A DNA stretch of 49,688 bases from an uncultured Rhodospirillaceae bacterium (lineage in GTDB: Bacteria; Pseudomonadota; Alphaproteobacteria; UBA8366; GCA-2717185), in assembly GCA_913044215.1 (NCBI GenBank), contig CAJWOT010000002.1, forward strand, positions 1 to 49,688, written 5' to 3'. A program made the position numbers and the translations under genes. The notes under the pieces are model-generated. The model worked only from the letters and a program-made list of their open reading frames with translations. It made no database searches and was not told the DNA's origin. Below, piece after piece: positions 32,995 through 46,352 of this stretch; position 1 is the first letter of the stretch; each line of letters begins with the position of its first letter.

Positions 32995-33433
32995 TTGGTC
33001 CTCCCTGTTATGGACTGGTTTGAGACTAAAGGTAGATTCTGCTGCCTCCACCTCATTCAGGAAATCACTTGCAGGCCCACCTCAATCCCTGGCCGCGAGT
33101 GTTCACCATTGCTGAAAATTGGTCAACCTTGTCGCGCTCTTCCCAATGCCAGCCCATTTCTTATTCCAAAATTCGGGGCCGCCCGGTGCGCGACGCACTC
33201 TCCCCTGTGATTATTTGCCCGTACAATACAAGTGACATATGAGAACGACAAGACGTTAGCACGAAACCATTTTTATCAGTCTGAAACCCTGCCTGCGCCC
33301 CGCAATCGCAAATTTGTTACAGCTCGGCGCGACAGTGTTTAAAGTCTGTTCACCAGCTACGGCCCTACGCGCCATATGGAGAACGGCCGGAACGGTGCCC
33401 AGAAAAGGCGACGTTCAACCCCGAGGAGGCGAT

Positions 33434-34540
33434 ATGAACGACAAGGCGAACACCGCCAGCGACATCCGGATGAAAGGCAGCGGTTACTATTCGCTCGCCA
33501 CGACCGGCGCGAAGATCGTCATCGACAGCGCCATGCCCCTGATCCGCGGCGCCCTGGACAGGATGGATATCCGAGATGACGGCTCCGTCTTCGCGATGGC
33601 CGATATGGGATGCGCCGACGGCGGCACCTCGATCGATATGGTTGGCCAAGCCTTGCGGTACGTGCGTGAGAAGGCACCGTCCCGACCTCTGACCATGACC
33701 TATACCGACCTGCCGCGGAACGATTTCAGTCAGGTCTTTCACAATGTCCACGGCCTGACCGACCTGCCAGGCTACGCGCCGGATATCGACAATCTCTACG
33801 TCTTCGCGTCCGGCACCTCGTTCCATCAGCGCATCTTCCCGGACAATGCGCTTAATTTTGGCTTCTCCGCGACCGCCTCGCATTACATCAGCGAACGCCC
33901 CGGCCCGATCACAAATCACGTCCATATGGTCGGTGCCGAGGGGGCGGAGCTGGCCGCTTATACGGAACAGGGCCGCGCCGACTGGGAGCGCATTCTCGGG
34001 TGCCGCGCAGCGGAGCTGGTGCCCGGCGGGGGGTTGGTCTTGCTCAATTTCTGCCGCGACGAGAAAGGCCGCTATCTCGGCGGTACCGAGGGCGTGAACA
34101 TGTTCCACACCTTCGATCGTCTGTGGCGGGAGATGGCCGAGGACGGCGCGATTACCATGGCAGAATATGAAGCCACGGTCTTCCCGCAATATTACCGCGA
34201 CATCGATGAATGCAGCGCACCGCTGACCGATCCCAACTGCCCCGTGCACAAAGCCGGCCTTCGCCTAGATCACATCGAAACCAAGGTGATCGATTGTCCC
34301 TACCGGCTCGACTACGAGCAGCACGGCGACGCGGCCAAATTCGCCCGGGACTATATCCCGACCCTGCGCTCCTGGAGCGAAAGCGTCTTCTTCGCCGGCT
34401 TGTCAGAAGACCGGCCGCTGGAAGAACGCGCCGAACTTATCGATCACTATTTTGATTCCTACGGGACCTTCGTGCGCGAGAACCCGACCGGCCAAGGCAT
34501 GGACTATGTCCACACCTACATGGTCATGCACAAGGAGTAA
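33434..34540 (+). CDS. SABATH-type (Methyltransf_7-like) SAM-dependent carboxyl methyltransferase homologue
   Basis: Collinear matches to plant SAMT/JMT motifs run over the full length:
- RMKGSGYYS (plant HMKGGxGxxSY)
- ADMGCADGGTS (ADLGCSSGPN)
- TDLPRNDFSQVF (NDLPGNDFNxxF)
- SGTSFHQRIFPDNALNFGFSATASHYIS (GSFYGRLFPxxSLHFxxSSYSLHWLS)
- AAELVPGGGLVLL (EEVVPGGRMVLT)
- FPQYY (IPQYTP)
GAGGAGG lies upstream of the ATG at 33434. Confidence 0.8.
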   Translation: MNDKANTASDIRMKGSGYYSLATTGAKIVIDSAMPLIRGALDRMDIRDDGSVFAMADMGCADGGTSIDMVGQALRYVREKAPSRPLTMTYTDLPRNDFSQVFHNVHGLTDLPGYAPDIDNLYVFASGTSFHQRIFPDNALNFGFSATASHYISERPGPITNHVHMVGAEGAELAAYTEQGRADWERILGCRAAELVPGGGLVLLNFCRDEKGRYLGGTEGVNMFHTFDRLWREMAEDGAITMAEYEATVFPQYYRDIDECSAPLTDPNCPVHKAGLRLDHIETKVIDCPYRLDYEQHGDAAKFARDYIPTLRSWSESVFFAGLSEDRPLEERAELIDHYFDSYGTFVRENPTGQGMDYVHTYMVMHKE

Positions 34541-34554
34541 CCGCGCGGCCCCGC

Positions 34555-35415
34555 TCAGCCCGCGGCTATCTTCTCCGCCACGCGCACGGTGCGATACATC
34601 GTACGCAATACGGGCTTTTCGATCAGTTTGTTGTCGAGCACCACAAGACCGCTGTCGCCTTCCTCGAAGGCGGCGATAACCCGGCGTGCGTGGGCAACGG
34701 CCTCTTCAGATGGGCTGAAGATCGCGTTCAACGGTGCGATCTGCTTGGGATGGATAGACCCCTTGCCGGTGAAGCCGAGCTCCTCAGCAAGTTGTGCCTC
34801 GCGTTCCATCCCTTCCATATCGTCGAGATCGAGATAAGGCACATCGATCACATCGAGGCCCGCGCCGGCGGCGGCATGAACGACACGCGAGCGGGCATAA
34901 AGCAACGTCTCCCACCTGTTCGCCGCGCGCAACTCCGCCGCCATATCAACGCCACCGAAGAACATCGCATCGATCCGGCCACTCGATTGGGCGATGTCGT
35001 AGGCGGCTTCAAGGCCCGCATTGGTCTCGATGATAACGTGCAGGCGGGTCAGCATATCGTGCTCGGTCAGCAGTTCGTCCAGTGCCTTCACCTCATCCGG
35101 TGACACGACCTTGGGCAGCATCAGCGCCGGCGGCGCTGTCACGGCGGACACTGCCGCCTGCACGTCGGCCATTCCGTCGGCCGTGCGCAGGCAGTTGATG
35201 CGGACGATCCGTTCGACGCCGTCTTTCGCCTGCGGCGTCTCGAACAGCTTCATCGTGCGCTCGCGGGCGTCCTGCTTATGGTTCGGCGCGATCGCATCCT
35301 CAAGATCGATGCAGACAATATCCGCGCCCGTTGCCAACGCCTTGGGAAACATGTCCGGACTGACGCCGGGCATGAATATAAAGCTGCGGCGCGGCTGAAA
35401 CTCTTCGTTGTCCAT
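34555..35415 (-). CDS. HpcH/HpaI aldolase / citrate lyase beta (CitE)-like acyl-CoA lyase
   Basis: RRSFIFMPGVSPDMFPKALATGADIVCIDLEDAIAP is a CitE/malyl-CoA lyase-type N-terminus. The protein is 286 aa. Confidence 0.8.
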   Translation of the reverse strand: MDNEEFQPRRSFIFMPGVSPDMFPKALATGADIVCIDLEDAIAPNHKQDARERTMKLFETPQAKDGVERIVRINCLRTADGMADVQAAVSAVTAPPALMLPKVVSPDEVKALDELLTEHDMLTRLHVIIETNAGLEAAYDIAQSSGRIDAMFFGGVDMAAELRAANRWETLLYARSRVVHAAAGAGLDVIDVPYLDLDDMEGMEREAQLAEELGFTGKGSIHPKQIAPLNAIFSPSEEAVAHARRVIAAFEEGDSGLVVLDNKLIEKPVLRTMYRTVRVAEKIAAG

Positions 35416-35418
35416 GCT

Positions 35419-36618
35419 CTACAATCCGAGAACGGCTTTGGCGATGACGTTGCGTTGGATCTCGTTCGACCCGCCATAGATCGATGCGGCGCGCCGCAGC
35501 AGCCGCTCGCTCATCAATCCGACGCTGTGGTCCGGGCCGACCGGCGGTTCGTTCGCGTCGGGCCGCACCATGCTGGCATCGTAGGGCAGCGCGTAGAAAC
35601 CCATCGCTTCGACGAGCAATTCGTTAAGCTCTTGTTCGATGGTTGTCCCGCTGATCTTGAGGGTCGACGATTCCGGCCCCGGATTTCCGCCGCCGGCAAG
35701 CGCCGACATCATCCGCAAATTGGTGATCTCCAGCGCGGAGAGCGAGACCTCGACTTTCGAAATACGCGACTTGAACCCATGATCGTCGAGCAACGAACCG
35801 CCCTCGGCACGCTCGATCTCGGCGATCTGTTTCAGCTTCTTCACCTTCTGCTTCGACTTGCCGACCCCGGCGATCCCGGTCCGCTCGTGACCCAGCAGGA
35901 ACTTGGCGTAGGTCCAGCCTTTGTTTTCTTCGCCAATGCGGTTCTCTACCGGCACCCGCACATCGTCGAAGAAAACTTCGTTCAAGTAATGACCGCCATC
36001 CATTGAGATAATCGGCTTCACCGTCAGACCCTTGGTCTTCATATCGATCAAGAGGAAGGTGATGCCTTCCTGCTTCTTGACGTCAGGGTCGGTCCGGGTG
36101 AGGCAGAAGATCAAATCCGCCTTATGCGCCTGCGAGGTCCAGATCTTCTGGCCGTTGACGACATACTCGTCACCATCCAGTACCGCGCGGGTTTGCAGCG
36201 AGGCCAGATCCGAGCCCGAGCCCGGCTCCGAATAGCCTTGGCACCACAACTCGTCGCCGGAAAGAATGCTCGGCAGATAGCGGTCTTTCTGCGCCTGAGT
36301 GCCGAAAGTGTAAATAACCGGCCCGACCATGGTAATCCCGAATCCGCTGATCCGCGGCGCATCATTGGCGCTGTATTCCTCTTCGAAGATATGACGCTGG
36401 GTTACAGACCAACCGGTGCCGCCATACTCCACCGGCCAGGCCGGCGCGATCCAGCCACGCTTGTACAGCGCCTTGTGCCAGGCAACCATGTCGGACTTGG
36501 AGACGTAGGACGGCGTCCGCCGCACGACCTCGCGCACCGTTTCCGGCAGGTTTTCCTTGAAGAAAGCACGCACCTCCTCGCGGAACGCCAAATCTTCGTG
36601 GCTGAACAACATGTCCAT
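35419..36618 (-). CDS. Acyl-CoA dehydrogenase family protein (PimC/FadE-like large-subunit type)
   Basis: WCQGYSEPGSGSDLASLQTRA, NGQKIWTSQAHKADLIF and ISMDGGHYLNEVFFDDVRVP are present. The protein is 399 aa. The gene lies 3 nt upstream of the CitE-like gene. Confidence 0.85.
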   Translation of the reverse strand: MDMLFSHEDLAFREEVRAFFKENLPETVREVVRRTPSYVSKSDMVAWHKALYKRGWIAPAWPVEYGGTGWSVTQRHIFEEEYSANDAPRISGFGITMVGPVIYTFGTQAQKDRYLPSILSGDELWCQGYSEPGSGSDLASLQTRAVLDGDEYVVNGQKIWTSQAHKADLIFCLTRTDPDVKKQEGITFLLIDMKTKGLTVKPIISMDGGHYLNEVFFDDVRVPVENRIGEENKGWTYAKFLLGHERTGIAGVGKSKQKVKKLKQIAEIERAEGGSLLDDHGFKSRISKVEVSLSALEITNLRMMSALAGGGNPGPESSTLKISGTTIEQELNELLVEAMGFYALPYDASMVRPDANEPPVGPDHSVGLMSERLLRRAASIYGGSNEIQRNVIAKAVLGL

Positions 36619-36663: not shown

Positions 36664-37617
36664 TTACTCGGCGGCATAGGCAAGAATCGGCTGACCAAGT
36701 AACGAGCTGGATTCCCGACCGTCAACACCCACCGGCACGTCACCCACCAAGGTGACGCGATAAAGCTGGCGGTCCGCATCAATCTGAAAGATATCGGATG
36801 GCGCCAGATGGCAGGTCGAGCGATTGTCCCAAAAGGCGATATCACCGGCCTTCCAGCGGAACCGCACCGTATAATCCTGACGCACCGCGTGTTCCCACAA
36901 CAACTCCAGCAGTTGCTCGCTCTCGCGCGGCGCCAGCCCGACGACCTCTTTCAAAAAGGACGGGCTAACATAAAGGGCCCGTTCGCCGGTTTCCGGATGC
37001 ACACGGACCAGCGGATGTTCGCTCTCCTGTCCCCGGGTGCGCAGCATCTCCTTATAATCTTCGGAGGATTCCGCCCCCTGCGGCGGCGCGAATTTGTGCA
37101 CGCCGCGTAGCGTGTCGACGAACCCCCGCAGCGTGTCCGACAGACCGTTATAGGCCGCAACCAAATTGGTGAATTGGGTATCGCCGCCATAGGGTGGGAT
37201 GTTCACACCGCGCAGAATCGATGCCGCCGGCGGGTTGATCGCCGCCGTGATGTCAGCGTGCCAGCCGGTCCAGGGTTTCTCCATCTTCGCGCCGGTCTTG
37301 TAGCGATTCGCCTTGCGGTGCTTGGCGATGGAGTAAATCTCCGGATAGTCCTCTACATTGCCAAACACGGCATGCCCGATCGTCAGTTCACCGAACTGTC
37401 TTGCGAAATCCAGGTGCTGATCGTGATCGAGATGCTGATCGTGGAAGAAAATCACCTTCCATTTCAGCAGAGCGGCACGAATCTCCTTCACCGCCTCGCT
37501 GGACAGCGGTTTTGTCAGATCGACACCACCGATTTCCGCACCGATATTAATCGTGACCGGATTGATTTCGATTTCCTTCGGTGCATCGGCCAATTCGAAT
37601 GCTGCCACGTTGCTCAT
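36664..37617 (-). CDS. TauD/TfdA-family Fe(II)/2-oxoglutarate dioxygenase, paralogue 1
   Basis: The HxD motif is in WTGWHADIT, and the distal His is in DNRSTCHLAP. The start is the ATG at 37615-37617 (MSNVAAFELAD...). The upstream part of the 410-aa track ORF is read-through into paralogue 2 in another frame. Confidence 0.85.
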   Translation of the reverse strand: MSNVAAFELADAPKEIEINPVTINIGAEIGGVDLTKPLSSEAVKEIRAALLKWKVIFFHDQHLDHDQHLDFARQFGELTIGHAVFGNVEDYPEIYSIAKHRKANRYKTGAKMEKPWTGWHADITAAINPPAASILRGVNIPPYGGDTQFTNLVAAYNGLSDTLRGFVDTLRGVHKFAPPQGAESSEDYKEMLRTRGQESEHPLVRVHPETGERALYVSPSFLKEVVGLAPRESEQLLELLWEHAVRQDYTVRFRWKAGDIAFWDNRSTCHLAPSDIFQIDADRQLYRVTLVGDVPVGVDGRESSSLLGQPILAYAAE

Positions 37618-37633: not shown

Positions 37634-38551
37634 CTATTCCGCCGCCCAGGCGGTAATCGGGTCGCCCTCGATCGCCTTTGAAGGCGTGCCATCGACCCCG
37701 ACCGGCACGTCGCCAACCAAGGTGATACGGTAGAGCTGCCGCTCGCCTTCGACTTCAAATATATCGGTAGGCGCGTGATGGCATGCCGCCCGATTGTCCC
37801 AGACAGCGATATCGCCATCGCGCCAGCGGAAGCGCACCGTGTATTCCTGGCGTACGGCATGCTCCCACAACATTTCCATGAAATACTGGCTTTCACGCGG
37901 CGTCATGCCAACGATTTCCTTGAGATAGGACGGGCTGACATAGAGCGCCCGCTCGCCGGTCTCCGGATGCACCCGGACGATTGGGTGTTCGCTGACCAGT
38001 TTGCGGCGCTTGAAATAATCTTCATAGGCTTTCGTGCCGGGCTCCACCGCAGGCGCCGCCGTGTAATGAAGCCCGCGCAATGTATCGACGAAGGCGCGCA
38101 GCGTTTCCGACAATCCATCGTAAGCTGCCGCCAGATTGGTCCATTGCGTGTCGCCGCCATAGGGCGGCAGGGTCACCCCTCGCAGGATCGATATGGCCGG
38201 CGGGTTGATCGCCGAAGTGATGTCGGCGTGCCAGCCCGTCCAGGGCGCGACCATCTTCGGAGCACCGAACTGGTTTGCCGCGCGTTTCTTGGCGATCGAA
38301 TAGATTTCCGGATAGCCGTCGATATGGCCGAACACCGCGTGACCGATGGTCGGCTCGCCCAGCTGTTTGGCGAAGGCGAGGTGGCTGTCGTGGTCGATGT
38401 CCTGATCGTGGAAGAAAATGACCTTCCATTTCAGCAACGCCGCGCGAATTTCCTTGACGGTATCCGCCGACAGCGGCTGGGACAGATCGACGCCACCGAT
38501 TTCCGCGCCGATATGAATGCTGAGGGGGTTAACGTCGATGCTCGACGCCAT
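37634..38551 (-). CDS. TauD/TfdA-family Fe(II)/2-oxoglutarate dioxygenase, paralogue 2
   Basis: It has the same motifs (WTGWHADIT, DNRAACHHAP). A hand-aligned N-terminal block has 51 of 64 residues identical to paralogue 1. The 3' end is 16 nt from the paralogue 1 start. Confidence 0.88.
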   Translation of the reverse strand: MASSIDVNPLSIHIGAEIGGVDLSQPLSADTVKEIRAALLKWKVIFFHDQDIDHDSHLAFAKQLGEPTIGHAVFGHIDGYPEIYSIAKKRAANQFGAPKMVAPWTGWHADITSAINPPAISILRGVTLPPYGGDTQWTNLAAAYDGLSETLRAFVDTLRGLHYTAAPAVEPGTKAYEDYFKRRKLVSEHPIVRVHPETGERALYVSPSYLKEIVGMTPRESQYFMEMLWEHAVRQEYTVRFRWRDGDIAVWDNRAACHHAPTDIFEVEGERQLYRITLVGDVPVGVDGTPSKAIEGDPITAWAAE

Positions 38552-38662
38552 GGGTCTTACTCCTGAAACTTACTGAGACCATGAGAACCTTTAGCGCAAT
38601 GCTAGTGCGAACAGCCGTGCTTCACAATTGTTGCGGCTAAAAAGTCGCAGCAAAGCAACAAA

Positions 38663-40036
38663 CTAGCCCTCGATCCATGCGTCCAGCGCGTCGTCATCCT
38701 CGCCCGGCACATGCACGACCGTGAAGGTAAAGGGGTCGCCGCCGAGAGGTTTCGTCGCGTCGAGACCCATCTTATCGACCCGCCCATCCGTCCCCGACGG
38801 GTCGAGACGGGACCCCTGTGCGCCGGCGACAACCATCAAATCTTCCGCCGCCTGAAACCGGGTCGCAACGGCCCATTCGACCGCATCCGGATTGAGGATA
38901 TCAACATCCTCGTCGACAATGGTGACCTGCTTGATATCGGCGTGTCCGGCGAAAGCGCCCATCATGATGTTCTTCGGCTCGCCGTCCCATCGTTTGGCAA
39001 TCTTGACGACCAGATGATAGCGGCAGACCCCGCCACGCGAGAGATGAACATCTTTGACGCTCGGAAATGTCCGCTGCAGATGGGCGATGAGTGACGCCTC
39101 TCGCGGGATACCGCCGAGCAGCAGATGTTCCATCGCCGCCGGCACGATGGTGTGGAACAGGGCGTCCTCGCGCCGTGTGATCGCGTCGATCACGATGACC
39201 TGACGCTTGCCCACCGGTCCATAATATTGCGGGAATTCGCCGAACGGCCCTTCCTCCTCGCGCACTTCCGGCAGCAATCGGCCTTCGATGACGATCTCCG
39301 CCTCGGCCGGCACGCGCACATCGTTCGTCTTGCATTTTACGACCGGCAAGGGCCCGCCATGCAGGGCACCGGCGACTTCCAATTCGTCCCGGTCTATTGG
39401 CAGGATCGCCTGCGAGGCGAGCAGCGTCAGCGGGTCGACGCCGACCGCGATAGCGACCGACAGCGGTTCGGCCGCTTCCTCTGCGGCATCGTAGAACCGA
39501 TGCAAATCTCGCGGCAGTATCAAGATACCAAGCCGGTCAGGCCCGTTGATCTGTATCCGGTTGATCGAGACGTTCTGCACGCCGGTTTTTGGATTGGCCG
39601 CGATCACCAGCCCCGCCGTGATATAGGCACCGGAATCATGTTCGTTATGCACCGGGATCGGCAGTTCATCTCGAATATCAAAACCACTTTCGATGACGAC
39701 CTGCTGCACAGGCGCGGATTCAGATGCGACTTCGGACCAGGGCAGCGGGTGCAGCACGGCATTGCGATAGCGGTCGAGCATATCGCTTTCATCCACCCCC
39801 ATCGCTTCCGCGATCCACGGCCGGGACGCGACCAAACCCGAAATCACCGACAATTCATGACCGCCCGGCGCGGGAAACAATGTCGCCTTCTCGCCGTCCA
39901 GACGTTTGGCGATCGCCGCCAAGGTGAATTCCAGCGGTACATACGGTTTGGTCCGAACCAACCGGCCAGTCTCGTCCAACCGGTCGAGCCATGACCGCAA
40001 GGTCGTGAAGGGGGCATTCGGTCGCGCAGTTGTCAT
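38663..40036 (-). CDS. UbiD-family (prFMN-dependent) decarboxylase
   Basis: Full-length UbiD architecture is present: LRSWLDRLDETGRLVRTK, NVSINRIQ, EGPFGEFPQYYG, RYHLVVKI, and MGLDATKP near the C-terminus. The protein is 457 aa. Confidence 0.88.
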   Translation of the reverse strand: MTTARPNAPFTTLRSWLDRLDETGRLVRTKPYVPLEFTLAAIAKRLDGEKATLFPAPGGHELSVISGLVASRPWIAEAMGVDESDMLDRYRNAVLHPLPWSEVASESAPVQQVVIESGFDIRDELPIPVHNEHDSGAYITAGLVIAANPKTGVQNVSINRIQINGPDRLGILILPRDLHRFYDAAEEAAEPLSVAIAVGVDPLTLLASQAILPIDRDELEVAGALHGGPLPVVKCKTNDVRVPAEAEIVIEGRLLPEVREEEGPFGEFPQYYGPVGKRQVIVIDAITRREDALFHTIVPAAMEHLLLGGIPREASLIAHLQRTFPSVKDVHLSRGGVCRYHLVVKIAKRWDGEPKNIMMGAFAGHADIKQVTIVDEDVDILNPDAVEWAVATRFQAAEDLMVVAGAQGSRLDPSGTDGRVDKMGLDATKPLGGDPFTFTVVHVPGEDDDALDAWIEG

Positions 40037-40818
40037 GCCTGGTCCGCCTTTCTCGTCTCGATTTCCGCTGGCACGTGCCAGGCGAGCGTCTCAGCGAATG
40101 CGGCCACCGCGCCGACGACGAACAAGGTCGGTGCCGACAGTTCGGCTTTTGCGATCTCGCCGGGCAATCTTGCCAAGGTCGCACTGATCACCTTCTGCGT
40201 CGGCAATGTGCCATTCTGGATTGCGGCTGCCGGCGTATCCTCCGGCAAGCCCGCTTGGATCAGGTTGTTGCAGATCCGATCGATCTTCATCAGCCCCATA
40301 TAGATGACCAGGGTCGTATCCGGGTCAGCGAGCCGGTTCCAGTCCAATTCCAGTTCGCCATTGTCCGCCATGTGGCCGGTGACGAAATGCACGCCCTTCG
40401 CAAGCCCGCGATGGGTGAGCGGGATACCGGCATAGGCAGCGCAGCCCATTGACGCGGTGATCCCCGGTACGATCTCGAATGGAATCCCATGTTGCGCCAG
40501 GTGCAATGCCTCTTCACTGCCGCGTCCGAATATGAAGGGGTCCCCGCCCTTCAGCCGCACCACGCGCCGGCCGCTGCGTGCCTGGGTCACCAAGACGCCG
40601 TTGATCGTTTCCTGCGGCATGTAATGCTTGCGCGACGCCTTGCCCGCGAAAATCCGCTCCGCATCTACCGGCACCAAGGCGAGGACGCTTTCCGAAACAA
40701 GCCGGTCATAGACCACGATCTCGGCTCCCTGCAGTACGCGCAAGGCCCGCACGGTCAGCAGATCCGGATCGCCCGGCCCCGCACCGACGAGAAAGACCCG
40801 TGGTTCGCTAGCGTTCAT
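40033..40818 (-). CDS. cobA: Uroporphyrinogen-III C-methyltransferase (SUMT)
   Basis: VFLVGAGPGDPDLLTVRALRVLQGAEIVVYDRLV and VVRLKGGDPFIFGRGSEE are present. The start is the ATG at 40816-40818. Its TGA overlaps the UbiD ATG (ATGA at 40033-40036). Confidence 0.88.
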   Translation of the reverse strand: MNASEPRVFLVGAGPGDPDLLTVRALRVLQGAEIVVYDRLVSESVLALVPVDAERIFAGKASRKHYMPQETINGVLVTQARSGRRVVRLKGGDPFIFGRGSEEALHLAQHGIPFEIVPGITASMGCAAYAGIPLTHRGLAKGVHFVTGHMADNGELELDWNRLADPDTTLVIYMGLMKIDRICNNLIQAGLPEDTPAAAIQNGTLPTQKVISATLARLPGEIAKAELSAPTLFVVGAVAAFAETLAWHVPAEIETRKADQA

Positions 40819-40917
40819 TCTAAGAGAATTCCCTCGAAAAACGCGACGATAGTACACGGGCTAATGCAGCGACCCAACAGGCGTTCGCGTGGAAATGCAT
40901 TGTGAAGTCGCTGTCTA

Positions 40918-41013
40918 CCCCACCCACCCCCATCAAGAGGGAGAGAAAATTTATGGCGAAAAATCTTCCTTTGTCCCTTCCCCCTCGAGGGGGGAAGGCT
41001 AGGATGGAGGTGG
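40918..41013. repeat. G/C-tract intergenic palindromic element (REP-like), copy A
   Basis: CCCCACCCACCCCC...AAGAGGGAGAG... is followed by an imperfect hairpin, CCCTTCCCCC-TCGA-GGGGGGAAGG, at about 40975-40999, then GGATGGAGGTGG. The ORFs crossing it (40820-41026, 40902-41279) look like repeat translations. Confidence 0.5.
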
Positions 41014-41055
41014 AACCACCATTCATCCGAAAATGGAATGCAACAGGAGACCGCT

Positions 41056-41832
41056 ATGCCTTATCAACCCTTCGACCTGACCGGCAAGGTCGCGCTGATC
41101 ACCGGCGGCAATGGCGGGATCGGGCTCGGCATGGCGGACGCCATCGCGCAGGCCGGCGGCAGCGTCTGTATCTGGGGCACCAATCCAGAGAAAAATGCCA
41201 CGGCGCTGGCGCAGATCGCAGCGCATGGCGCCGAGGCCGCGGCGATGGTTTGCGACGTCTCGCAGGAAGAAGAAGTTGAGCGCTGTTTCGCGGCAACATT
41301 GGAGCGGTTCGGCCGGGTCGATGGCTGCTTCGCCAATGCTGGCATCAGCGGCCGCGGCGCGCTGACGCCCTTCGTCGAAATGACCAAGGACTCCTGGGAC
41401 CGCATCATGGGGGTTAATCTGGACGGCGTTTTCTACACCTACCGCGCCGCCTGCCGGCACATGATCGAGCGCGGCGGCGGCGGCCGCCTGGCCGTGACGG
41501 CGAGTCTCGCCGCCTTATCCGGCGCGGCCCGAAACGAGCACTACGCCGCGACCAAGGGTGCGGTCGTCTCGATGACCTATGCGCTCTCGGTGGAGATGGC
41601 GCGCTACGGCATCACGGCGAACGCGATCCTGCCCGGATGGATCGAAACGGCGATGACCGAGAGCGCCTTCAACTGGGAGAAGTTCGCCAACAACGTCAAG
41701 CCGCGCATCCCGATGCGGCGCTGGGGCGAAGGGTCGGATTTCGGCGGGCTTGCGGTCTATTTGATGTCCGACGCGAGCGCCTATCACACCGGCGACACTC
41801 TTCTGATCGACGGCGGTTACCAGAAGTTCTGA
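41056..41832 (+). CDS. SDR-family oxidoreductase
   Basis: The cofactor motif is TGGNGGIGLG and the catalytic YxxxK is in YAATKGAV. The ATG at 41056 starts MPYQPFDLTGKVALITGG. Confidence 0.88.
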   Translation: MPYQPFDLTGKVALITGGNGGIGLGMADAIAQAGGSVCIWGTNPEKNATALAQIAAHGAEAAAMVCDVSQEEEVERCFAATLERFGRVDGCFANAGISGRGALTPFVEMTKDSWDRIMGVNLDGVFYTYRAACRHMIERGGGGRLAVTASLAALSGAARNEHYAATKGAVVSMTYALSVEMARYGITANAILPGWIETAMTESAFNWEKFANNVKPRIPMRRWGEGSDFGGLAVYLMSDASAYHTGDTLLIDGGYQKF

Positions 41833-42565: not shown

Positions 42566-43366
42566 ATGCGACTGGCCACAATCTCGTCGATTTCTATCAT
42601 CTTTGGATTGGTGTTTGCAGCCGCGGAGAGTGTGTCCGCCGCACAAATCTGCAGCGGATTCGGCCCGCAAACACCGCGCGATATCACCAGTATTTCCGGC
42701 ACGAACAAGCGGCTTTTCACCCTCGCACCCGCGGCGACGCAACTGAACCTTTGCAACATCCACACCCATACCAACGCGGAACACAAAGGCCCTGGATTCT
42801 CCGTCTTCGCCGGCGCAGGCACGCATGGCGGCTACAAGTGCAACGACAGCGACAAGCTGACGGCTGCCGAACTCAAAGACCCGTCGAACGGCCATGGCGC
42901 CTTCCACGGCATCAAGCCAGGCGACACGATCGAGGTGCATTGGGTCCACAGCTCTTGCGACATCAAACCGGGCAAGGGTCTCGGTTCCTGCCTCAGCCCG
43001 AAATGCGCCAATCCGCAGCTGCGCGTCGAAACCCAGGTCTTCCTAGTGGTCAACGACAAGAGCGCGCTGAACTTCGCCGACTTCGCCTATGCGGGCAACG
43101 TGAAGAACGGTTTGCATCAGGCGAAGTCGCTCCCGTCGGGGACCGGCACGCCGGTCGTGTTCGCAGGTTCGACAACCGGCCCGAAATACACCCAGGCGCA
43201 ATGCTCACCCCTGCAGGTTACCTGGAGCGTCCGGCCGCAATGCGCCAAAGTCGATGTGAGTTCGCTTTACAAGTGGGCCAAGGACGGCAACGTTTTCCGG
43301 GAAGACCACTCGCACGGCGTGCGCCAGCTCGTCACGGCACCGGAACTGTTGTCGCCGATCCGATAG
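42566..43366 (+). CDS. Secreted protein with an alpha-CA-like zinc His triad; putative delta-class-like carbonic anhydrase
   Basis: The signal peptide is MRLATISSISIIFGLVFAAAESVSA. CNIHTHTNAEHKG parallels the alpha-CA motif QFHFHWG..GSEH, and IEVHWVHSS parallels ELHLVHWN. The rest does not read as a classical alpha-CA. The delta-class assignment is from memory and unverified. Confidence 0.45.
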   Translation: MRLATISSISIIFGLVFAAAESVSAAQICSGFGPQTPRDITSISGTNKRLFTLAPAATQLNLCNIHTHTNAEHKGPGFSVFAGAGTHGGYKCNDSDKLTAAELKDPSNGHGAFHGIKPGDTIEVHWVHSSCDIKPGKGLGSCLSPKCANPQLRVETQVFLVVNDKSALNFADFAYAGNVKNGLHQAKSLPSGTGTPVVFAGSTTGPKYTQAQCSPLQVTWSVRPQCAKVDVSSLYKWAKDGNVFREDHSHGVRQLVTAPELLSPIR

Positions 43367-43606: not shown

Positions 43607-44536
43607 ATGAATGTGGGATTCATCGGCCTCGGCACCATGGGGGCCAGCATCGCGTTAAACGCGATCAAGGGCGGGCATTCGCTAACCGTGCACGACATTA
43701 ACAAGGAGGCAGCGGCCGAACATCTGAAGCTGGGCGCGGCCTGGGCCGACACGCCGAAAGCGGTCGCCGAGGCGAGCGACGTCGTTTTCACCTCGTTGCC
43801 GGGGCCGCCCGAAGTGCAAGCGGTCGTGTTGGGTGAGAATGGGCTGATCGAAGGCTTCAAGCCCGGCAGCGCCTATTTTGACCTCAGCACCAACTCGCCA
43901 ACAGTGATCCGCGACATCCATGCGGCGCTGGCCGAGAAAGACGTGCAGACGCTCGACGCACCGGTCAGCGGCGGCCCGGACGGCGCCCGCGACGGGCGGA
44001 TGGCGATTTGGATCGGCGGCGACGAAGACGCTTACAACAAGTACCTGCCGGTGCTGAACAGCATGGGCGACGCCCCCTACTATGTCGGCCCGATCGGCGC
44101 CGGTGCGGTGGCCAAGCTGGTGCACAATTGCAGCGGCTACATCCTGCAGACGGCGCTGGCCGAAACCTTCACCATGGGCGTGAAGGCCGGTGTCAATCCG
44201 GAAGGGCTGTGGCAGGCGCTGCGCAAGGGCGCGCTGGGCCGACGCCGGGTGTTCGACACGTTGGGACGCCAGTTCCTGCCGGGTCGTTTCGACCCACCCG
44301 ATTTCGCCCTCAAGCTCGCTCGCAAGGATGTGGCGCTGGCCTGCGAGGTCGGCCGTGAATTCGACGTGCCGATGCGCCTGGCGCACCTCACCTTGATGGA
44401 AATGACCGAAGCGTTGAACCGCGGCTGGGAAGGCCGCGATTCCCGCGTCGCCATGACCCTGCAAACGGAACGTGCCGGCGTCGATGTGCGCGTCTCCGAC
44501 AACCGGATCGCCGAGATCCTCGCGGAGGACTCATGA
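43607..44536 (+). CDS. NAD(P)-dependent beta-hydroxyacid dehydrogenase (3-hydroxyisobutyrate dehydrogenase family)
   Basis: The Rossmann motif is MNVGFIGLGTMGASIA. DAPVSGG and the GAGAVAKLVHN segment are typical of the HIBADH/6PGDH-like family. Confidence 0.85.
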   Translation: MNVGFIGLGTMGASIALNAIKGGHSLTVHDINKEAAAEHLKLGAAWADTPKAVAEASDVVFTSLPGPPEVQAVVLGENGLIEGFKPGSAYFDLSTNSPTVIRDIHAALAEKDVQTLDAPVSGGPDGARDGRMAIWIGGDEDAYNKYLPVLNSMGDAPYYVGPIGAGAVAKLVHNCSGYILQTALAETFTMGVKAGVNPEGLWQALRKGALGRRRVFDTLGRQFLPGRFDPPDFALKLARKDVALACEVGREFDVPMRLAHLTLMEMTEALNRGWEGRDSRVAMTLQTERAGVDVRVSDNRIAEILAEDS

Positions 44537-45279
44537 GCATGAAAGGAAAGACCGCGCTGGTCACCGGGTCCGGCCGCAATATCGGCCGCGGTATCGCGCT
44601 GCATCTGGCCGGTGCCGGCTGCAATGTGGTCCTCAATGGCAGCCAGGACCGGGCGGCCTGCGAGACGGTCGCCGAGAAGGTCCGTGCCGCCGGCGCGGAA
44701 GCCACCATCGAAATGTGCGATATCGGCGATCGCGAGGCGGTCTTGGCTATGGCCGCCTCCGCGCTCGATCAATTCGGTACAGTCGACATCCTGATCAACA
44801 ACGCGGCCATCCGGCCTGGCGGCGACTTCCTCGAGGTCTCCGAGGACGACTGGAACAAGGTGATGGATGTCAACTTCACCGCCGCCTTCCACCTCTGCCG
44901 TGCCTTCATGCCCGGCATGATCGCAAAGGGCTGGGGCCGCATCGTCAACTTCACCGGCATGAACGCACAGATGGGCGGGCACAGCCGGCCGGCGGTCACC
45001 GTCTCCAAACACGCCATGTGGGGCCTGACCAAGACGCTATCGCGGGACTACGGACCGAAGGGGGTGACGACGAACATCATCTCACCCGGCACCTTCCCCG
45101 ATATCAGCGTCGATACCTCGACACCGGATTTCGAGGCGATGCGCCAGGCCAACCCGTCAGGCCGTCTGGGTACACCGGACGATATCGCCGCCGTTGTCGA
45201 CCTATTGATGACCGACGAAGGCGGCTTCATCAACGGCCAGATGCTGCAGGTGAATGGCGGTGTCGTGAACCAGTTCTGA
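44533..45279 (+). CDS. SDR-family oxidoreductase (FabG-like)
   Basis: TGSGRNIGRGIA and NNAA are present, and the catalytic S...KxxxW context is VSKHAMWGLTK. The ATGA overlaps the upstream gene. Confidence 0.8.
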   Translation: MSMKGKTALVTGSGRNIGRGIALHLAGAGCNVVLNGSQDRAACETVAEKVRAAGAEATIEMCDIGDREAVLAMAASALDQFGTVDILINNAAIRPGGDFLEVSEDDWNKVMDVNFTAAFHLCRAFMPGMIAKGWGRIVNFTGMNAQMGGHSRPAVTVSKHAMWGLTKTLSRDYGPKGVTTNIISPGTFPDISVDTSTPDFEAMRQANPSGRLGTPDDIAAVVDLLMTDEGGFINGQMLQVNGGVVNQF

Positions 45280-45281
45280 CC

Positions 45282-46352
45282 ATGGTCGAAATCTGGACAC
45301 ACGCTGTCGCCTCGCCGCGCGGCGTGATGAAGACCGCAATCGATTTGGAGAAGAACGGCTGGGACGGGCTCTGTGTCGTCGATTCGCAGAACCTGTCCGG
45401 CGATCCGTTCGTTGCGCTGGCGATGGCGGCGACGGTCACGGAGCGGATCGGGCTCGGCACCGGGGTCTCGAACTCCGTCACGCGCATCGCCGCCTCGATG
45501 GCGAGCGCCGTTCTCAGCGTTGACCGCATCTCGAACGGCCGCGCCCTGATCGGGCTCGGCCGCGGGGACTCCGCGCTCGCCCATATCGGCCGGGCGCCGG
45601 CGCGCATGAAGCAGTTCGAGACCTATCTGCGGCATCTGCAGGCCTATCTGCGCGGCGAGGCGGTGCCCTTCGACGAAATCGAGATGCCGGACGATGTGGC
45701 GCCCGCGGTCAGTCATCTCGGCCTCGCCGACGAGCCGGAGGAGAGCCGGATCACCTGGCTGTCCGGCGGCGAGCGCAAAGTACCCGTCGAGGTTGCGGCC
45801 AGCGGCCCGCTCGCGATCAAAGTCGCTGCCCGCCAAGCGGATCGCATCATGTTCACCCTGGGCGCGGATGCGGACCGCATCGCCTGGGGTATCGAGCTGG
45901 CCAAGCAGGCGCGCCGCGATGCGGGCCTCGACCCGGACGGCATCGCCTTCGGCGCCTATATCAACTGCGTGCCGGGTGACGATCTGGACCGGGCGCGCGA
46001 CCTGGCGCGCGGCGGCCTCGCCACCTTCGCCCGCTTCTCGGTCATGCATGGCAAGCCGAACGGCCCGATGTCGCCGGAGGCGGCGCAGGCCCTGCAGAGC
46101 CTGTACGACACCTATGACATGAACAAACACACGCAAGACGACTCGCGGCAGGCGGCGGGCTTGCCAGCGGACTTCATCGACCATTTCGGCGTCGTCGGGC
46201 CGCCCGACCGCTGTATCGAGAAGCTGAAAACCCTGACAGCCCTCGGCCTCGACAAACTGTTCTTTGGCGTCATGTTCCGGTTGGTGCAGACGCCGGAAGG
46301 CCGCACCGCGAAGGCGTTGATGGAAAAAGAAATTCTGCCCGCCCTAAGGTAG
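45282..46352 (+). CDS. LLM-class (luciferase-like) flavin/F420-dependent oxidoreductase
   Basis: The ATG at 45282 lies 2 nt after the SDR stop. WDGLCVVDSQNLSGDPFVALAMAAT...RIGLGTGVSN...GRALIGLGRGDS is the TIM-barrel LLM pattern. The 626-aa track ORF (44472-46352) is this gene plus upstream out-of-frame read-through. Confidence 0.8.
   Translation: MVEIWTHAVASPRGVMKTAIDLEKNGWDGLCVVDSQNLSGDPFVALAMAATVTERIGLGTGVSNSVTRIAASMASAVLSVDRISNGRALIGLGRGDSALAHIGRAPARMKQFETYLRHLQAYLRGEAVPFDEIEMPDDVAPAVSHLGLADEPEESRITWLSGGERKVPVEVAASGPLAIKVAARQADRIMFTLGADADRIAWGIELAKQARRDAGLDPDGIAFGAYINCVPGDDLDRARDLARGGLATFARFSVMHGKPNGPMSPEAAQALQSLYDTYDMNKHTQDDSRQAAGLPADFIDHFGVVGPPDRCIEKLKTLTALGLDKLFFGVMFRLVQTPEGRTAKALMEKEILPALR

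Follow-up and report, generated by a model that had tools for sequence, protein, structure and literature searches.

A cobA gene sharing an ATGA stop/start overlap with an HmfF-type UbiD-family decarboxylase gene in an uncultured Rhodospirillales genus: probable lineage-specific juxtaposition of two unrelated genes

The DNA analysed here (the window, 49,688 nt) belongs to a metagenome-assembled genome of 525 contigs that is 93% complete with an estimated contamination of ~5%. On its minus strand a stand-alone uroporphyrinogen-III C-methyltransferase (SUMT) gene, cobA, is followed directly by the gene of a UbiD-family decarboxylase, P0001. Direct reading confirmed the claim of an earlier note on this DNA that the two genes share four nucleotides, which read TCAT on the plus strand and ATGA on the coding strand. 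The two family calls made in that note were borne out as well, with 353 bits for P0001 on TIGR00148 (cut-off 245) and, for the cobA product P0002, 310 bits on the SUMT model TIGR01469 (cut-off 185) and 312 bits on NF004790 (cut-off 198). The features of the locus are listed in Table 1.

Table 1. Genes and other features around the cobA-decarboxylase junction (window coordinates)
Feature	Coordinates	Strand	Remarks
CitE/RipC-like acyl-CoA C-C lyase	34555..35415	-	PF03328 139 bits; NF038242 246 bits, under the 375 cut-off
Acyl-CoA dehydrogenase (PimC-like)	35419..36618	-	three ACAD domains; TIGR03204 484 bits, under the 624 cut-off
TauD/TfdA-family 2-oxoglutarate dioxygenase (b)	36664..37617	-	PF02668 211 bits; start likely the in-frame ATG at 37617
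TauD/TfdA-family 2-oxoglutarate dioxygenase (a)	37634..38551	-	PF02668 205 bits; taurine dioxygenase equivalog 204 bits, under the 313 cut-off
111-nt spacer 3' of the decarboxylase gene	38552..38662	-	weak terminator-like hairpin at 38659..38644 (5-bp stem, then T run)
Predicted HmfF-type UbiD-family (prFMN-dependent) decarboxylase P0001	38663..40036	-	457 aa; UbiD_N, UbiD and UbiD_C domains
ATGA stop/start overlap (cobA TGA, decarboxylase ATG)	40033..40036	-	direct sequence reading
cobA, stand-alone SUMT	40033..40818	-	261 aa with the start taken as the ATG at 40818; upstream GTG at 40857 in the same open frame; TIGR01469, NF004790, PF00590
Divergent intergenic region, cobA / SDR gene	40819..41037	.	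presumed promoter region; no riboswitch
Short-chain dehydrogenase (SDR), divergent from cobA	41038..41832	+	PF13561 204 bits

A promoter scan called no sigma-70-like site in the divergent intergenic region. The counts from the promoter and terminator scan of the region equal the shuffled expectation, and the hairpin behind the decarboxylase gene is therefore taken as a hint only. A search for a foreign-DNA signature at the locus found a flat GC content of 0.58-0.63 throughout. Overlaps of the ATGA type also join three successive gene pairs of a cluster on contig C44 and two pairs of a cob cluster on contig C30, and the one between cobA and the decarboxylase gene reflects tight packing and, probably, co-transcription, with no further meaning.

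P0001 belongs to the UbiD superfamily both by its domains, which match over the full length of the protein (PF20695 45 bits, PF01977 220 bits, PF20696 114 bits), and by its catalytic network, in which none of 78 orthologues departs from the E-R-E triad (E262, R160 and E267; the E(D)-R-E motif was defined in PMC8988006) or from N155 and E218, all of which align with PtHmfF. Its best solved relative is PtHmfF of Pelotomaculum thermopropionicum (6h6v/6h6x), a 2,5-furandicarboxylate (FDCA) decarboxylase (PMC8988006; PMC7976604). The match is ungapped over residues 12-452 (E 2.6e-134, 452 bits), with ~215 identities in 441 aligned positions, or ~49%, as counted from the alignment midline. The next best solved family, AnInD, reaches 219 bits, and AroY, UbiD and VdcC reach at most 165. 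This placement, made with bit scores against PDB entries and with the genome's own UbiD paralogues in place of labelled reference enzymes, puts P0001 in the HmfF clade, one of several characterised clades that the earlier note had listed. The two proteins share the three-domain architecture, a similar length (457 aa for P0001 and 448 for PtHmfF), the triad, the metal ligands and, at PtHmfF 296, 304 and 331, the His and Arg residues. The His at PtHmfF 296/297 is key to furan specificity (PMC7976604). Its counterpart, H304 of P0001, aligns with 6h6v chain position 296 and is invariant in 78 orthologues, as is R339, and R312 is Arg in 77 of the 78. Close relatives of P0001 carry the JGI name '2,5-furandicarboxylate decarboxylase 1'. 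By these sequence features P0001 is an HmfF-type UbiD-family enzyme. Its substrate, predicted from its likeness to a Firmicute enzyme (~49% identity) and from the genes around its orthologues elsewhere, is most likely 2,5-furandicarboxylate or a close heteroaromatic dicarboxylate, which would be converted to 2-furoate.

A role as the ubiquinone-biosynthesis UbiD was ruled out for P0001, which scores 163 bits on the equivalog NF008175 against a cut-off of 788; a far better candidate, with 720 bits on that model, lies on contig C50. P0001 shares with canonical UbiD (4-hydroxy-3-polyprenylbenzoate decarboxylase) the superfamily and the prFMN chemistry, but a long tree branch separates it from the C50 paralogue. 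The genome holds an expanded set of eight UbiD paralogues and a single UbiX.

As the earlier note had stated, no UbiX or ubiquinone gene stands beside the decarboxylase gene, and the one ubiX copy of the assembly was located on contig C175. The description of P0001 as an orphan holds at the locus but not genome-wide, since ubiX and an hmfABCDE-like cluster are found elsewhere. That cluster, on C44, has genes for a molybdenum large subunit, FAD and FeS subunits, a CoA ligase and a crotonase in hmfABCDE order.

The cobA product matches the SUMT equivalog models over its full length, and PF00590 at 184 bits; no other protein of the assembly exceeds the SUMT cut-off. It resembles CobA and the C-terminal domain of CysG in this full-length match and, at 261 aa, is of the stand-alone CobA type. 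It covers only positions 216-449 of NF007922 and is not a trifunctional CysG; for the CysG N-terminal domain, PF13241 gave only weak Rossmann-type matches, elsewhere in the genome. The earlier note was also right that no cob gene, sulfite or nitrite reductase gene or B12 riboswitch accompanies cobA. The other corrin methyltransferases of the genome are all on C30, Rfam gave no match at gathering score in the window and none at E<=1 within 38400-41200, and a search of the whole assembly, 93% complete, gave no NIR_SIR domain. The window cobA differs from its known counterparts in lying apart from the cob cluster on C30 (cobM, cbiG-cobJ, cobI, cobL and cobH). Because that cluster lacks a SUMT gene and cobA is the only one found, cobA presumably supplies it. 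It probably serves cobalamin only, the assembly having yielded no sirohaem-dependent reductase. A sirohaem rationale for the locus was also considered, in which TauD would yield sulfite, sulfite reductase would need sirohaem and sirohaem would need cobA. It was dropped because the search of this 93%-complete assembly gave neither a NIR_SIR domain nor a clear CysG N-terminal domain.

The adjacency is not peculiar to one strain. It occurs in all six same-genus genomes that hold the UbiD orthologue, and the paired UbiD orthologues of the genus form a single clade (support 1.0). It is confined to that genus; UbiD is beside none of 23 SUMT loci in relatives, and at 74 orthologue loci from other genera there is no case of cobA within ~6 kb. 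The ATGA overlap is present in five of seven genus members, and the other two, L045 and L046, have a spacer of 37-39 nt. Members of a single genus are related, and their agreement has the weight of one event only. The adjacency has outlasted a divergence of 15% in the decarboxylase and 23% in cobA, which leaves room for some selective advantage of co-expression. In the sister genus, G008 carries cobA, TauE/SafE, TauD, ACAD and TauD genes in series without a UbiD gene, its ACAD being 76% identical to the acyl-CoA dehydrogenase of the window, and G012 keeps the divergent SDR/cobA arrangement. This order suggests that the decarboxylase gene has taken up a position within an older backbone.

The 74 orthologue loci (62-75% identity; Alpha-, Beta- and Gammaproteobacteria outside the genus) show where such genes stand otherwise. 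In 35 of them the neighbouring genes are homologous (>=40% identity) to those of C44 and/or to UbiX, with UbiX itself next door in ten, and these layouts agree with the published hmfABCDE and hmfFG arrangements (PMC8091172). P0001 thus has orthologues within hmfABCDE- and hmfFG-type clusters, as in the HmfF systems of P. thermopropionicum and Cupriavidus basilensis, whereas the window gene lies away from hmfG/ubiX and hmfABCDE, in the presumed cobA transcription unit. The remaining 39 loci, among them the closest outgroup (~75% identity), have no hmf-like neighbour within ~6 kb, and part of the orthologue group may therefore act on other acids. De novo clustering of the neighbours yielded no conserved partner gene, no family being present at more than 19 of 80 loci. 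The pairing of the genus clade with a gammaproteobacterial hmf-cluster clade has a support of only 0.32 and was not relied on.

How, then, is the arrangement to be read? The earlier note had left the choice between a fusion of operons by chance and a role outside the canonical one for either enzyme, for instance decarboxylation of a pyrrole- or tetrapyrrole-derived acid. Chance fusion is the favoured half of that choice; a non-canonical role fits poorly with a cobA that has an obvious SUMT task, and nothing points to a pyrrole or tetrapyrrole acid as substrate. A metabolic link, with P0001 acting on such an acid tied to precorrin-2 metabolism and the ATGA coupling fixing the stoichiometry, could appeal to the retention of the overlap in most of the genus and to the presence of both orthologues in six genus genomes and the absence of both from the seventh, G005. 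G005, however, lacks the whole locus, the ACAD orthologue included, so that the co-absence amounts to one deletion or insertion and not to correlated loss. The overlap is also lost, or was never present, in two genus members, cobA and UbiD are not neighbours at any of the loci compared in other genera, and all residues checked, the furan-specificity His included, are identical to those of orthologues inside hmf clusters. The known decarboxylases of sirohaem and haem d1 metabolism (AhbA/B, NirDLGH) are of a different family, which also counts against the link. We regard it as very improbable, and equally so the version in which the overlap marks selected co-production of SUMT with an HmfF-like enzyme recruited to a pyrrole- or tetrapyrrole-derived acid instead of a furan; if true, that recruitment would be the first link of prFMN-dependent decarboxylation to modified-tetrapyrrole metabolism.

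Less far-fetched, though still unlikely, is that the decarboxylase works with the two TauD-family dioxygenases, the PimC-like ACAD and the CitE-like lyase in an uncharacterised organic-acid catabolic pathway, with cobA as a bystander upstream. All six genes share one strand and the block is conserved throughout the genus. Moreover, 12 alphaproteobacterial loci that group in a clade of their own have a CitE-like gene (36-38% identity) immediately upstream of the orthologue, and at one of them, L074, TauD- and ACAD-like genes also occur within 6 kb. The 12 loci form one tight clade and so count as a single event, and the rest of their surroundings (M17 peptidase, sulfite-oxidase-like Mo domain, MFS, lactonase) is unlike that in the window. 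In the sister genus cobA is followed by the TauD-ACAD backbone but by no UbiD gene, the spacer with its weak hairpin parts the decarboxylase gene from the first TauD gene, and in the genus member L043 an insert of ~1.3 kb stands at that point. That the pairing arose by misassembly or misbinning in a fragmented metagenome-assembled genome can practically be dismissed. The number of contigs and the estimated contamination would allow for one, but the same junction recurs in six independently assembled genus genomes with synteny on both flanks, and GC is uniform across it.

The reading we prefer, with a probability of roughly 0.78, is that two unrelated genes, a housekeeping cobA and an HmfF-type decarboxylase gene, became packed together in one lineage. 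In the genus ancestor the decarboxylase gene would have arrived directly downstream of cobA, in the slot held by a tauE-family gene in the sister genus, and the spacer would later have collapsed to ATGA in most members; this direction of rearrangement is what we infer from the sister-genus gene order. Lying directly behind cobA with the spacer collapsed, the decarboxylase gene probably relies on the cobA promoter for its transcription, and its translation may be coupled to that of cobA. The housekeeping SUMT would make precorrin-2 for the cobalamin ring-synthesis genes on C30. P0001 would obtain its prFMN from the single UbiX, and the 2-furoate would be used by the C44 cluster through a furoyl-CoA ligase, a three-subunit molybdenum dehydrogenase and a crotonase-type hydrolase. 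An hmfA-like orthologue was not found in two other carriers of the cobA-UbiD pair, G001 (87% complete) and G007 (92% complete).

For annotation, P0001 should be named HmfF-type (FDCA-decarboxylase-like), neither a ubiquinone UbiD nor a cobalamin-linked enzyme, and cobA should be taken for the SUMT of a distant cob cluster; the pairing has little import beyond annotation. It serves as a caution that a stop/start overlap speaks for tight packing and is no proof of shared function. For the organism, the gene content suggests that this uncultured Rhodospirillales genus carries a dispersed furan-acid pathway made up of hmfF, hmfABCDE-like genes and ubiX.

The UbiD-family protein encoded behind cobA (P0001) matches the UbiD_N, UbiD and UbiD_C domains and the generic TIGR00148 model (353 bits). 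The earlier note took firm clustering with ubiquinone-biosynthesis UbiD to speak against an unusual role; P0001 is not of that type, with 163 bits against a curated cut-off of 788. For VdcC (290 bits, cut-off 650) and menaquinone decarboxylase (200 bits, cut-off 496) it likewise scores far under the cut-offs. Among solved structures the best match, by a large margin, is 6h6v/6h6x (E 2.6e-134, 452 bits, gap-free over residues 12–452), followed by AnInD (219 bits) and by AroY, UbiD and VdcC (at most 165 bits). 6H6V is PtHmfF, the 2,5-furandicarboxylic acid decarboxylase from Pelotomaculum thermopropionicum (PMC8988006; PMC7976604), with which P0001 shares about 215 identities over 441 positions (49%, counted by hand on the printed midline). 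Near relatives carry the JGI label "2,5-furandicarboxylate decarboxylase 1". In an alignment of 78 orthologues the E-R-E network (E262, R160, E267), N155, E218, R339 and H304 are invariant, and R312 is Arg in 77. H304 aligns with PtHmfF His296, which was described as key for furan specificity (PMC7976604), and both this His and the E-R-E network of PtHmfF are kept in P0001. At each of these residues the cobA-linked clade is the same as the other clades. Judged by its sequence, P0001 is an HmfF-family decarboxylase.

A scan for orthologues in one genome per species gave 80 loci, six in the genus itself (85–99% identity) and 74 in other genera (62–75% identity). At 35 of the 74, homologues (at least 40% identity) of the Mo-hydroxylase large, FAD and FeS subunits, CoA ligase, crotonase-family protein and/or UbiX adjoin the orthologue, UbiX directly so in 10. 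These neighbourhoods are the same as the hmfABCDE, hmfABCDE-F and hmfFG arrangements reported for furan degraders (PMC8091172), and were found in Xanthobacteraceae, Azospirillum, a Burkholderiales MAG, Salinisphaera, Arhodomonas, Aquisalimonas and several gammaproteobacterial MAGs. The other 39 loci, mostly of marine alphaproteobacterial MAGs, have mixed neighbours, and "orphan" members are therefore common in this orthologue group.

The overlap of the cobA stop with the decarboxylase start was read correctly in the earlier note: the coordinates agree, both genes are on the minus strand, and the plus strand at 40033–40036 is TCAT, giving an ATGA common to the TGA stop and the ATG start. Because this genome routinely joins genes by 4-nt overlaps (three consecutive in the cluster on contig C44, two among the cob genes of contig C30), the overlap is unremarkable in itself. 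The absence of a riboswitch and of functionally related neighbours also held; no Rfam family matched anywhere in the window, nor in the vicinity of the two genes at E ≤ 1. By domain and family models, the gene divergent from cobA encodes an SDR, and the other neighbours encode two TauD-family dioxygenases, a PimC-like acyl-CoA dehydrogenase (ACAD) and a CitE-like lyase. Nothing in the GC content of the locus suggests that it was recently acquired from a foreign source.

Three other open reading frames of the window (see table) were also observed. The 408-aa frame, convergent with the CitE-like gene, matches the SABATH-type SAM-dependent carboxyl methyltransferases (PF03492, 123 bits), which are known mostly from plants. 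The 266-aa frame has a strong delta-carbonic-anhydrase-like match (PF10563, 242 bits) and no NCBIfam match. In the 626-aa frame a luciferase-like monooxygenase domain is confined to residues 275–594, and the frame is probably 5'-extended by an open high-GC frame.

Features of the window and of related contigs (G000, the window's own assembly; G008, a sister-genus genome)
Feature	Location	Strand	Remarks
cobA (product P0002)	window 40818..40033	minus	ATG start, 261 aa
UbiD-family gene (P0001)	window 40036..38663	minus	457 aa
SABATH-type ORF	window 33314-34540	plus	408 aa
delta-carbonic-anhydrase-like ORF	window 42566-43366	plus	266 aa
luciferase-like monooxygenase ORF	window 44472-46352	plus	626 aa
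hmfABCDE-like cluster	G000:C44:13171-19258 (L166:5172-11259)		five genes, 4-nt overlaps
ubiX	G000 C175:8951-9493		cut by contig end
BluB-type weak match	L167:7800-8474 (C175)	minus	224 aa
UbiD-family paralogues	G000 contigs C50, C64, C48, C6, C255, C296, C99 (loci L001, L002, L004-L008)
cobA-TauE/SafE-TauD-ACAD-TauD	L151:8088-13429 (G008:C45)		all one direction; TauE/SafE-family, permease

Conservation of the adjacency, a check proposed earlier, extends to the genus and stops there. Six of the seven other genomes of the genus carry a P0001 orthologue, with cobA immediately upstream in all six, and none of 33 genomes from other genera of the order does, the best matches there being paralogues of 32–38% identity. 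No cobA homologue lies within about 6 kb of the orthologue at any of the 74 loci of other genera, and a UbiD neighbour is absent at 23 further SUMT loci in relatives. In the tree the seven genus sequences form a single clade (support 1.0) nested in the orthologue group, and the adjacency therefore arose once. The ATGA overlap is present in five of the seven, the most divergent two (L045 and L046) having a 37–39 nt spacer. Sister-genus genome G008 has the order cobA, TauE/SafE-family gene, TauD, ACAD orthologue (76% identity) and TauD, with UbiD absent, and another, G012, retains the divergent SDR–cobA arrangement; thus the backbone SDR<>cobA-[one gene]-TauD-ACAD predates the genus. The decarboxylase gene sits in its variable slot. 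Linkage of a SUMT gene to sulfonate-type genes recurs in two genera; no sirohaem-dependent reductase turned up in G000.

P0002 scores 310 bits on the SUMT equivalog domain TIGR01469 (cut-off 185), and cobA is the sole above-cut-off SUMT gene in the assembly. On contig C30 lie cobM, a cbiG-cobJ fusion, cobI, cobL and cobH, with SUMT absent. Searches of this MAG (525 contigs, 93% complete) yielded neither a NIR_SIR (sulfite/nitrite reductase) domain nor a clear CysG N-terminal domain. The most plausible role for CobA is the first committed step of cobalamin synthesis, encoded apart from the rest of the pathway. The genome has several TauD-family dioxygenase genes even though that reductase domain was not found; assimilatory sulfite reduction may be absent, or its genes may have escaped assembly.

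The description of the decarboxylase gene as an orphan stands insofar as no UbiX gene is nearby, but the genome, with eight UbiD-family genes, has a single ubiX on C175 and an hmfABCDE-like cluster on C44. The C44 genes encode, in hmfABCDE order, a Mo-large subunit (801 aa), FAD subunit, FeS subunit, acyl-CoA ligase and crotonase-family protein, and are the clear best matches to genes flanking HmfF orthologues elsewhere (large subunit 50% identity, 791 bits; next paralogue 456 bits). The cluster is a candidate 2-furoate pathway. Of the six further genomes in the genus that carry a P0001 orthologue, four have an orthologue of its large subunit; none was found in the carriers G001 and G007, in G005 (without a P0001 orthologue) or in nine other-genus genomes, the MAGs being incomplete. 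The C50 paralogue (720 bits on NF008175) is, by this score, a ubiquinone-type UbiD. The C64 and C6 paralogues are nearest phenylphosphate carboxylase beta (267–280 bits, under cut-off), and those on C296 and C99 fall under even the generic UbiD subfamily cut-off. On C175, the gene immediately upstream of ubiX gives the weak BluB-type match (53 bits, cut-off 150).

Might the decarboxylase instead function with the TauD, ACAD and CitE genes that lie downstream? In one other clade the orthologue does adjoin a CitE-like gene, but we consider such a role unlikely: the sister genus has the TauD-ACAD backbone without UbiD, a 111-nt spacer and a weak hairpin lie 3' of the decarboxylase gene, and in one genus member 1.3 kb is inserted behind it. 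A true metabolic link between cobA and UbiD, the non-canonical role raised earlier, is far less probable still, as nothing beyond one clade supports it, and an assembly artefact is ruled out by six independent assemblies.

In a single genus, an HmfF-family decarboxylase gene has ended up behind the housekeeping cobA; we infer the direction of this rearrangement. Transcription of the gene probably starts at the cobA promoter, its translation may be coupled to that of cobA, and a distant UbiX would supply its prFMN. The proposed substrate of P0001 is 2,5-furandicarboxylate or a similar heteroaromatic dicarboxylate, and the product would be 2-furoate; activation of the furoate and its oxidation towards 2-oxoglutarate would fall to the C44 cluster.
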